Part shown: piece after piece, positions 13,391 to 15,111 of the stretch | Layout of the letters: the number at the start of each line of letters is the position of its first letter | Numbering within the stretch: position 1 is the first letter of the stretch | Assembly (NCBI GenBank): GCA_944383375.1 | Contig: CALWPG010000004.1 | Location: forward strand, 42,423 to 106,422 | Reading direction: 5' to 3' | Length of the DNA: 64,000 nucleotides | Origin: an uncultured Clostridia bacterium | GTDB lineage: Bacteria > Bacillota > Clostridia > Christensenellales > UBA1242 | The notes under the pieces: generated by a model | The model's database searches: none | What the model saw: only the letters and a program-made list of their open reading frames with translations | Told to the model about the DNA's origin: nothing | Program-made: the position numbers and the translations under genes

Positions 13391-13444
13391 ATTTATAATT
13401 TTAGATTATAAAACAACCTATGTCAATTATTTGCAAAAAACTTG

Positions 13445-13473
13445 TTGCAAATATTGTTGGTTTGTGATAATAT
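13445..13473 (+). promoter_or_regulatory. Putative sigma-A promoter for tRNA-Leu
   Basis: TTGCAA, 17 nt, TAATAT (GATAAT is an alternative -10). Lies about 17 nt upstream of the tRNA 5' end. Confidence 0.5.
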
Positions 13474-13489
13474 ATCAAAGTCAACACCT

Positions 13490-13575
13490 GCTGGTGTGGC
13501 GAAATGGCAGACGCACGGGACTCAAAATCCCGCGAGGGCAACTTCATGTGGGTTCGACTCCCACCACCAGCACCA
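13490..13575 (+). tRNA. tRNA-Leu(CAA), CCA encoded
   Basis: Acceptor GCTGGTG/CACCAGC, anticodon arm CGGGA-CTCAAAA-TCCCG, long variable arm, T arm GTGGG-TTCGACT-CCCAC, then A-CCA. Confidence 0.9.
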
Positions 13576-13969
13576 CAATATTTTCATTTCTTTTTTTTTG
13601 CGGGATTTTGAGTCCCTACGGGACATCAACTCCTGTCGGAGCCAGACCGCACATCGCTTACGCGAATGTGCTCCCGGCTTTGGCTAAAAACAACCACACA
13701 AGGGTTGTTTTTTTAACGCGTCGCCCCCGCGAGGGCAACTTCATGTGGGTTCGACTCCCACCACCAGCACCACAATATTTTCATTTCTTTTTTTTTGCGG
13801 GATTTTGAGTCCCTACGGGACATCAACTCCTGTCGGAGCCAGACCGCACATCGCTTACGCGAATGTGCTCCCGGCTTTGGCTAAAAACAACCACACAAGG
13901 GTTGTTTTTTTAACGCGTCGCCCCCGCGAGGGCAACTTCATGTGGGTTCGACTCCCACCACCAGCACCA
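13529..13969 (+). repeat. Tandem direct repeat: two complete 197-bp units plus a 47-nt third copy, each starting with the tRNA-Leu 3' 47 nt
   Basis: Units 13529-13725 and 13726-13922 are identical by eye. The third partial copy, 13923-13969, ends exactly at the CCA. Confidence 0.9.
13600..13714 (+). ncRNA. Candidate structured RNA inside repeat unit 1 (an identical copy lies at 13797-13911)
   Basis: GCGGGATTTTGAGTCCC is the exact reverse complement of the tRNA-Leu anticodon arm. There is a long hairpin GGAGC..GCACATCGC-ttac-GCGaATGTGCTCC. It ends in the terminator AAACAACC-acacaag-GGTTGTTT plus a T-run. Confidence 0.3.
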
Positions 13970-14112: not shown

Positions 14113-15111
14113 TTATTCAACTTCCACAACTCCTATTGCCTTACGAACATTTTTTATTGTTTGTTTTGCTAACTCTCGTGCCTTTTGCGCCCCATTTCTT
14201 AAAATTTCATCCACTATTTCTCTATGCTGTTGAAGATAGTTATATTTTTCTCGCATTGGTGAAAGGTATGCATTCATAAGATTAAAAAGTTCAGCTTTTG
14301 CCTCACCCCAAGATATACCCTTTTGCAGTTTTTGCGCAAACGCTTTTGCTTGTTCTTCTGTTCCAAAAAGTTTATAAAGTTTATAAATTGTGTTATCTAA
14401 ACTCTTTGGCTCGTCAGGTGCAGTACTATCTGTGACTATCCTATTTACCAATTTTTTTAGCTTTGCCTCGTCAGCAAAAATTGGTATTACATTTCCATAG
14501 CTTTTACTCATTTTTCTGCCATCAAGACCTACCAAAGCACCGACATTTTCAGAAATAAGTTCTTCTGGCAAGGAAAATGTGTTGCCATATTTTCTATTAA
14601 AATATGACGCAACGTCACGTGCAATTTCTATGTGCTGTTTTTGGTCTATTCCAACTGGCACAAAATCCGCACCAAGCAAAAGTATATCTGCCGTCATAAG
14701 TATTGGATAACAATACAGCCCCATATTGATGCCATAATCCTTATCCTCGCCTGCCTCTTCGTTTGCTTCCACCTTTGCCTTGTAAGCATGCGCTCTGTTC
14801 ATAAGGCCTTTTGGAGTAAAATTTGAAAGTATTGTTGAAAGTTCAAATGTTTGTGGAACATCTGACTGTTTATACAATACAACTTTGTTTGGATCAAGTC
14901 CGCACGCAAGCCAAGTACATGCGATGTGATATGTATATTCAAACAATTCTTCCTGATTTTGCACTGTCGTTAGTGCATGATAATCTGCTATGAAATAATA
15001 ACATTCATAATCTGAATTTTTGCTTAGTTCGATGGCTGGTTTAATTGCACCAAAATAATTTCCAAGATGTGCAATGCCCGTTGGTTTTACACCTGTTAGT
15101 ATTCTCTTCAT
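14113..15111 (-). CDS. trpS: Tryptophan--tRNA ligase
   Basis: Class I HIGH-type GIAHLGNY and KMSKS motifs. 332 aa. Confidence 0.95.
   Translation of the reverse strand: MKRILTGVKPTGIAHLGNYFGAIKPAIELSKNSDYECYYFIADYHALTTVQNQEELFEYTYHIACTWLACGLDPNKVVLYKQSDVPQTFELSTILSNFTPKGLMNRAHAYKAKVEANEEAGEDKDYGINMGLYCYPILMTADILLLGADFVPVGIDQKQHIEIARDVASYFNRKYGNTFSLPEELISENVGALVGLDGRKMSKSYGNVIPIFADEAKLKKLVNRIVTDSTAPDEPKSLDNTIYKLYKLFGTEEQAKAFAQKLQKGISWGEAKAELFNLMNAYLSPMREKYNYLQQHREIVDEILRNGAQKARELAKQTIKNVRKAIGVVEVE

Follow-up and report, generated by a model that had tools for sequence, protein, structure and literature searches.

Judged by sequence comparison, the 150-nt insert that occurs twice behind tRNA-Leu(CAA) in the window (the whole 64,000-nt stretch of DNA analysed here, from an uncultured Clostridia bacterium) is a member of a so far undescribed family of protein-less miniature insertion elements, copies of which were found at more than 170 places. 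Literature searches by concept and by sequence string returned no description of such a family. Taking the several parts of the reading jointly, we consider it on balance probable that the insert is a non-autonomous, site-directed mini-element that is moved in trans, has its site selected by a target-matched arm, and was doubled at this locus.

A doubled unit behind tRNA-Leu(CAA)

As the initial annotation had described, the 47-nt 3' block of tRNA-Leu(CAA) is present three times with two identical 150-nt inserts between the copies. This layout proved exact to the base: TRF reported a period of 197 nt over 13529-13969 (2.2 copies, 100% identity), and a repeat search recovered three copies of the 47-nt block and two of the 197-nt unit, each set 100% identical (Table 1). 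The 17 nt antisense to the anticodon stem-loop that had been noted in each insert were equally exact, the 17-mer GCGGGATTTTGAGTCCC lying at 13600 and 13797 on the plus strand and, on the minus strand, at the anticodon arm (13517-13533); across 100 shuffles of the window no chance match is expected. Compared with shuffled sequences, the fold of the 150-nt insert had a z-score of -4.97 on the plus and -4.22 on the minus strand.

The surrounding genes are housekeeping genes (clpC, mcsB and mcsA upstream, trpS downstream), and a near-perfect palindrome, TATTTGCAAAAA/TTGTTGCAAATA, lies at 13428-13453 between the divergent mcsA and tRNA-Leu promoters. No further copy of the 150-nt insert was found in its own genome, a 99%-complete MAG of 0.99 Mb.

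Table 1. Features of the tRNA-Leu(CAA) locus in the window, and tyrosine integrases abutting tRNA genes in the same genome (positions prefixed by contig).
Feature	Position	Strand	Basis	Remarks
tRNA-Leu(CAA)	13490-13575	+	ARAGORN and Rfam	intact
Insertion site AAAAT^CC	13528/13529	+		in tRNA-Leu(CAA)
47-nt tRNA 3' piece, copy 1 (piece A)	13529-13575	+	repeat search
A/T-rich spacer	13576-13599	+		ends in T9; without hairpin terminator
Target-matched arm	13600-13616	+		exact inverted anticodon arm 13517-13533; crosses cut by 5 nt
Hairpin H1	13608-13629	+	fold	3' part of arm pairs with sense copy GGGAC(A)TCAA
Hairpin H2	13630-13641	+		CTCC-TGTC-GGAG; loop TGTC invariant, stem covarying in family
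Hairpin H3	13649-13671	+	fold, comparison	TTAC cap; variable, compensated in family
Near-invariant right module	13676-13725	+	R1 match	GGCTTTGGCT, AAAAA, H4, AACGCGTCGCC
Terminator-like hairpin H4	13686-13714	+
47-nt tRNA 3' piece, copy 2	13726-13772	+	repeat search
Second 150-nt insert	13773-13922	+	TRF, repeat search, R1 match	identical to first; sub-features shifted by +197
47-nt tRNA 3' piece, copy 3	13923-13969	+		followed by flank towards trpS
trpS	14113-15111	-		downstream neighbour
Tyrosine integrase abutting tRNA-Ile(GAT)	C12:19522-21300			arm-type direct repeats AATAGGCACAGGA
Tyrosine integrase abutting tRNA-Lys(CTT)	C18:6193-7127			arm-type direct repeats AAGTGTCTAAAAA
Tyrosine integrase abutting tRNA-Leu(TAA)	C11:488-1267
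Tyrosine integrase abutting tRNA-Tyr	C1:491-1223

Architecture of the element

The element proper measures ~95-110 nt and reads, along its own strand, inverted arm, sense copy, H2, CCAGACCG, H3, CTCCC, GGCTTTGGCTAAAAA, H4, TTTTCTTAACGCGTCGCC and target copy. H1 is formed between the arm and the sense copy, a short stretch that repeats the left flank of the target; in the window, this sense copy comprises the 5' anticodon stem and the loop and ends 3 nt ahead of the cut. Of the features listed in the initial annotation, the insert has the T9 run, the GTCCC-TAC-GGGAC hairpin and the terminator-like hairpin. The TTAC-capped hairpin (H3) is present as well, but the ~14 bp ascribed to it had to be revised to 9 pairs with one bulge, or ~18 pairs when counting the outer pairing of GUCGGAGCC (13637-13645) with GGCUUUGGC (13676-13684) that encloses it.

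Across the family, H2, H3 and H4 are helices kept by compensatory change. H4 was 95.1% paired, with a covariation score of 0.529 vs. 0.114 for shuffled data (a value reached by none of 500 shuffles), while counts of G-U vs. A-C in H4 were uninformative on strand. The 3-5 bp stem of H2 around TGTC came in 21 different compensated versions, with a mean stem of 3.48 vs. 2.36 when partners were shuffled. For H3, we counted at least eight compensated stems across the family; automatic segmentation of this hairpin was poor. The right module (GGCTTTGGCTAAAAA, the covarying hairpin and TTTTCTTAACGCGTCGCC) is near-invariant in the family; the element closes with the invariant end ACGCGTCGCC, joined to a target piece that starts with CC, and in the window likewise directly precedes the CC of the duplicated tRNA piece.

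In the minimum-energy fold computed for RNA, UUGCGGG (13598-13604) pairs with CCCGCGA (13726-13732) and closes the whole element (z = -4.66). With DNA parameters, H2 forms and this helix between the arm and the next tRNA piece does not. Since it would have only 2-4 pairs in most T-loop copies, we treat the predicted closing helix, in which the 5' end of the arm would meet the next tRNA piece, as suggestive.

No promoter-like site was found inside the 197-nt units, so that any transcript would originate from the tRNA promoter, with H4 as its probable end. Read-through from that promoter probably stops at H4 as well. When the region was scanned against Rfam 15 (E-values up to 10), only the tRNA itself matched, every other match having an E-value above 0.6 and falling far below the gathering scores.

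A family spread among uncultured gut Clostridia

The initial annotation had allowed for an insert lacking homologues; a search of related genomes showed otherwise, with inserts 75-94% identical in nine genomes of the same genus and homologues in many others. The same-genus copies that were examined follow tRNA-Leu(CAA), usually as a single unit, and in other genera the homologous core adjoins tRNA-Leu(TAA), tRNA-Thr, tRNA-Leu(AAG), tmRNA and others. The exact right-end pattern was recovered in 99 stretches among 185,579 species genomes, all of them uncultured Clostridia or Christensenella-like gut MAGs, and in 35 more in metagenomes. A covariance model, a tool the initial annotation had also proposed, was built on the right module (R1). 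It had matches in 78 of the 401 genomes sampled from the order, in 39 of its 174 genera, and as many as 19 in a single genome; in the window it matched at 13672-13727 and 13869-13924. The conserved right module had no match in IMG/VR, phages or plasmids.

Clustering of the neighbouring proteins at the 99 loci revealed no recurrent family beside the copies, the most widely shared one being a housekeeping family at 6 of the 99. In the high-copy genomes (G150, which is complete and has 14 copies, G413 and G271), the same clustering returned only housekeeping genes or spurious frames across the repeats.

Target sites and junctions

Among 72 non-redundant copies, 22 tRNA/orientation classes were distinguished, with sites in anticodon, T and D loops. 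Sites in the first two lie at the 3' edge of the loop. The duplicated right piece begins with CC in 43 of 45 copies, and in 32 of 39 a gap of 2-3 nt is left between the end of the sense copy and the cut. Identity to the tRNA starts only at this CC after the loop, the overlap region not being shared with the element. Direct repeats bracket the element in most of 107 copies, with a duplicated target piece that ranges from 12 nt to more than 100 nt depending on the target, and an intact copy of the tRNA is kept alongside the element. In some genomes, the right module is located in non-tRNA repeats.

A fixed distance of 41-63 nt separates the arm from the right module. The longest exact inverted match of the arm to the resident tRNA averaged 11.6 nt, vs. 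6.9 nt for non-cognate tRNAs, and in 46 of the 72 copies an arm matching exactly over 9 nt or more extends across the cut by 1-7 nt. Two observations count against guidance by the arm: much of it is sequestered in H1, and copies of the tRNA-Ile type have an inverted arm that matches not the cut site but the beginning of a longer sense piece. In the inverted class (tRNA-Lys, His, Gly and Thr), the site is the D loop, the 5' tRNA piece is the one duplicated, and the element is turned around, so the matched arm has the tRNA's own sense; this links the arm to the DNA site in the element's orientation. An origin of the inverted arm as snap-back cDNA was ruled out, as the arm copies the intact target and not the adjacent interrupted copy.

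The D-loop class also bears on whether the insert is a host small-RNA gene, i.e., a 3' external transcribed spacer product of the tRNA operon whose antisense segment pairs with tRNA-Leu(CAA), as the initial annotation had considered. In favour of such a gene, the insert follows the tRNA promoter directly, without an intervening hairpin terminator, has a structured fold ending in a terminator-like hairpin, and holds a 17-nt exact complement of the anticodon arm. This pairing does not hold in general, however: an arm with tRNA sense cannot pair with its tRNA, and elements in inverse orientation are not co-transcribed with it. Arms target T and D arms besides anticodon arms, many copies are preceded by a tRNA with a terminator of its own, no Rfam family matches, and presence or absence in close species together with as many as 19 copies per genome are unlike a housekeeping RNA. 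We thus hold a host small-RNA gene to be very improbable. A T-box reading was ruled out, with no T-box elements found and arms that also target T and D arms.

At two loci, L119 and L070, the distal piece derives from a foreign tRNA allele. The distal piece of L119 has a compensated T stem (GTGGG/CCCAC), and its acceptor strand CACCAGC finds no pairing partner in the resident 5' half, GCCGAAG; in L070, the pieces on either side of the core are both foreign. These alleles suggest that left piece, core and right piece can travel together as a block, a pattern that later homologous exchange could also give. Comparison of the terminators at L064 and L116 fits either repeat being element-borne.

Mobility and tandem arrays

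Copies are present or absent among species and multiply within genomes. Six same-genus genomes have empty sites, with tRNA-Leu(CAA) followed directly by a terminator; the anticodon stems of these species are without CC, but they form a separate group, so this link is confounded. In one genome, the same rare H4 variant recurs in copies at three different tRNA-Leu genes, and class D copies have proliferated in one genome. We infer that the family is mobile, and its loop sites and usually target-matched arms point to an undescribed kind of site-directed mobile DNA. The suggestion in the initial annotation of a miniature element mobilised in trans stands as far as the element itself is concerned (gene-less, present or absent in close relatives and recurrently tandem), with movement in trans being plausible.

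Tandem arrays occur in at least 8 of the 99 stretches, and at many R1 model matches besides. Those with identical units comprise this window and an independent identical doublet (L221); those with diverged units comprise L036, L056, L098, L116 and G363, the last with three units. The doubling in the window, or indeed the whole A-B-A-B-A layout, might alternatively be an artefact of assembling a MAG from short reads, with a single unit at the real locus. Two units that are 100% identical over 197 nt are the type of repeat that short-read assemblers resolve poorly. An exact search of metagenome contigs for this species' variant gave no match, so that the doublet was not recovered from a second assembly. 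A layout with one unit (tRNA, insert, 3' piece) nevertheless recurs independently in many genomes, and the diverged-unit arrays in other assemblies indicate that arrays are real for the family, which makes an artefact improbable in our judgement. The doubling in the window is plausibly a very recent duplication.

Search for a candidate trans-acting enzyme

The IS110 DEDD recombinase (PF01548) was found in none of 37 genomes of the bacterial family, the element's own genome included, in a search whose positive controls worked. The Y1 HUH transposase (PF01797) was absent from the own genome and patchy in relatives, uncorrelated with presence of the element; reverse transcriptase was likewise absent from the own genome and showed no link with the element in relatives. 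Serine recombinase was absent from the own genome. What this genome does encode is six tyrosine recombinases, four of them beside tRNA genes other than tRNA-Leu(CAA) (Table 1), and those at tRNA-Leu(TAA) and tRNA-Tyr are near-identical paralogues at contig ends. The tyrosine recombinases are the only candidates in hand; because the genome is a MAG, the enzyme may also sit on an unbinned replicon.

Elsewhere in the family, comparison of L026 with L064 showed that the intact tRNA-Asn upstream of the mini-element is replaced in L026 by the 3' end of a gene for a 588-aa large serine recombinase. The junction falls within the acceptor strand, between TTGGG and GAGCCA, which suggests that a serine-recombinase element integrated into the same tRNA-Asn.

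The tyrosine recombinases are central to an account of the insert as a CIME-like remnant or satellite, an att-bounded mini-circle recombined by tRNA-specific tyrosine integrases encoded elsewhere and brought into tandem by accretion. Anticodon and T loops (7-nt loops with 5-bp inverted repeats) are said to be the preferred sublocations of tyrosine integrases, a view that Williams reportedly put forward in 2002, and the sites in these loops fit that preference. Six such enzymes are at hand, the one at tRNA-Ile with typical arm repeats, and the searches for IS110, Y1 transposase, reverse transcriptase and serine recombinase in the own genome were all empty. Both CIMEs and tandem accretion also have documented precedent (PMC5704250).

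The junctions nonetheless depart from the classic tyrosine-integrase footprint as which the initial annotation had read the repeated 3' blocks. Direct repeats of the tRNA 3' part (attL/attR) are there, in the form of the 47-nt block, but identity across the crossover region in the loop is absent, the element side reading ACGCGTCGCC, and from the end of the sense copy to the cut the element lacks 2-3 nt of the target. A single invariant end is found at all 22 classes, inverse D loops included, and at non-tRNA repeats; specificity read by protein would then need many integrases or a single very relaxed one. As to the cognate integrase that the initial annotation had envisaged, no neighbouring protein recurs, and a tyrosine recombinase lies within 8 kb at only 3 of the 99 loci. 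The module occurs in no full-length relative, nor in IMG/VR, phages or plasmids. In the classical product, the proximal 3' part would be element-derived and the distal copy the displaced host part; the foreign distal piece in L119 and L070 would be the opposite, a pattern that homologous exchange after insertion could also leave. On this evidence, we regard a CIME-like origin as unlikely.

Related layouts near tRNA genes

Several layouts resembling or adjoining those of the family were observed. In the own genome (C14:15160-15360), tRNA-Met(CAT) is followed by a terminator, AAGATTTGAACTTAT (an inverted T arm), a 19-nt hairpin, a T-loop-to-CCA copy and a second terminator, i.e., the layout of a mini-element with almost no core. 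At C2:121236-121516, tRNA-Arg(ACG) has its 5' portion as far as the anticodon loop, together with the upstream AACTCAATAT, duplicated ~200 nt upstream of the intact gene; the copies are separated by a different structured insert of ~160 nt with CCTTTGGTTCC, the inverted bases just after the break.

In a genome of the same genus (G018; L147, ~1640-1860, reverse), tRNA-Leu(CAA) is associated with an unrelated core of ~95 nt, flanked by GGGACTTGAAC (an inverted T arm) and a T-loop-to-CCA copy. Going by this arrangement, the core represents a second family of elements built on the same logic. A distinct ~90-nt palindromic repeat (AGAGAAAAAACTGCGC...GTTTTTTCTCT) directly follows tRNA-Leu(CAA) in L139 (G001), and interrupts the second mini-element units at different positions in L010 (G016) and L011 (G003). 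In L142 (G012), the displaced 5' half of another tRNA-Leu(CAA) allele lies ~30 nt upstream of the intact gene and ends in the anticodon loop, followed by AACGCGTTTAC.

A possible mechanism and its implications

In the site-directed mini-element that we favour, the variable arm would select the site by base pairing with the target, either as RNA or as folded single-stranded DNA, and a recombinase supplied in trans would recognise the invariant parts. The element in the window would have inserted at AAAAT^CC of tRNA-Leu(CAA), a single unit there being the common state among relatives that carry the insert. Its doubling would be recent, through unequal recombination or slippage between 47-nt repeats or through a second insertion into the regenerated site; that the flanking 47-nt repeats allowed it is the most likely account.

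It is tempting to go further and speculate on a programmable insertion system of a new type, in which a ~100-nt element carries its own guide arm and pairs with a hairpin-loop site, a stronger reading for which we would give only a minor chance. A trans-acting enzyme would here read the TGTC loop, the GGCTTTGGCT box and the ACGCGTCGCC end and join the element before CC. That enzyme would not be of the IS110 type, and Y1, reverse transcriptase and serine recombinase are those absent from the own genome. Retargeting would need a change of the arm only, which would account for the 22 tRNA/orientation classes and for the non-tRNA sites.

If the arm truly chooses the site, the family would offer an instance from nature, and a very small one, of base pairing directing DNA insertion, with a built-in means of sparing essential tRNA genes. 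On a conservative reading, it is an unannotated repeat family carried by about one-fifth of the genomes sampled from a major order of gut Clostridia, one that alters the layout of tRNA loci, gives rise to pseudo-tRNA fragments and tandem arrays, causes assemblies to break, and can lead the annotation of tRNAs and genomic islands astray.

Comparison with known systems

Like tRNA-integrating islands and CIMEs, the mini-elements use anticodon and T loop sites, are bracketed by a duplicated tRNA piece and leave the tRNA intact; with CIMEs they further share the lack of a recombinase of their own and the formation of tandem arrays. They differ in being 10-100 times smaller and in having a conserved structured core, an inverted target-matched arm, no overlap identity, and one end at 22 targets. 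A cis integrase or an integrase-bearing autonomous parent, as expected for classical tRNA integration or CIMEs, was not found.

The bridge RNA (seekRNA) of IS110/IS1111 offers a likeness of another kind, in that a constant structured non-coding scaffold is combined with variable target-matching segments and a fixed junction dinucleotide. Insertion into hairpin-like repeats and the existence of RNA-only copies are further points in common; stand-alone RNA modules of IS110/IS1111 include ssr9 of ISPpu9 (PMC12288879). Unlike in these systems, the DEDD recombinase is missing (0/37 genomes of the bacterial family), the tRNA piece is duplicated, and there is no sequence or Rfam similarity. IS110 bridge RNA has target- and donor-binding internal loops, whereas the mini-element has the predicted hairpins H1-H4 and an arm that pairs with the sense piece.

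IS200/IS605 and PATE resemble the mini-elements in their hairpin-rich ends and in the existence of gene-less derivatives. In IS200/IS605 the cleavage site is read by bases 5' of the foot of a hairpin, and in the mini-element the unpaired 5' extension of H1 complements the cut site. The differences are that the Y1 transposase is missing in the mini-element host, that pairing extends over 9-20 nt vs. 4-5 nt, and that a target piece is duplicated. A retroelement would require an available reverse transcriptase, which the own genome lacks.

The IMEX (CTX phage, TLC), which use host Xer and a folded single-stranded attP, have no integrase either, and their inverted target copies, once folded, give a duplex that imitates the target site, whose regeneration allows tandem arrays to form. 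They are, however, kilobase phage genomes that target dif, whereas the mini-elements measure ~100-200 nt and use tRNA loops, and a single-stranded stage would apply to the latter only by analogy.

Finally, bacterial MITEs (REP/BIME-targeting, RUP, Correia) are likewise small, protein-less, multi-copy and structured, and in some genomes nested in other repeats. The ends of the mini-elements (CYCC TGTCGG ... ACGCGTCGCC) differ from those of MITEs in not being inverted repeats, and there is no short target-site duplication of fixed length; unlike in MITEs, each mini-element copy carries an arm matched to its own target.
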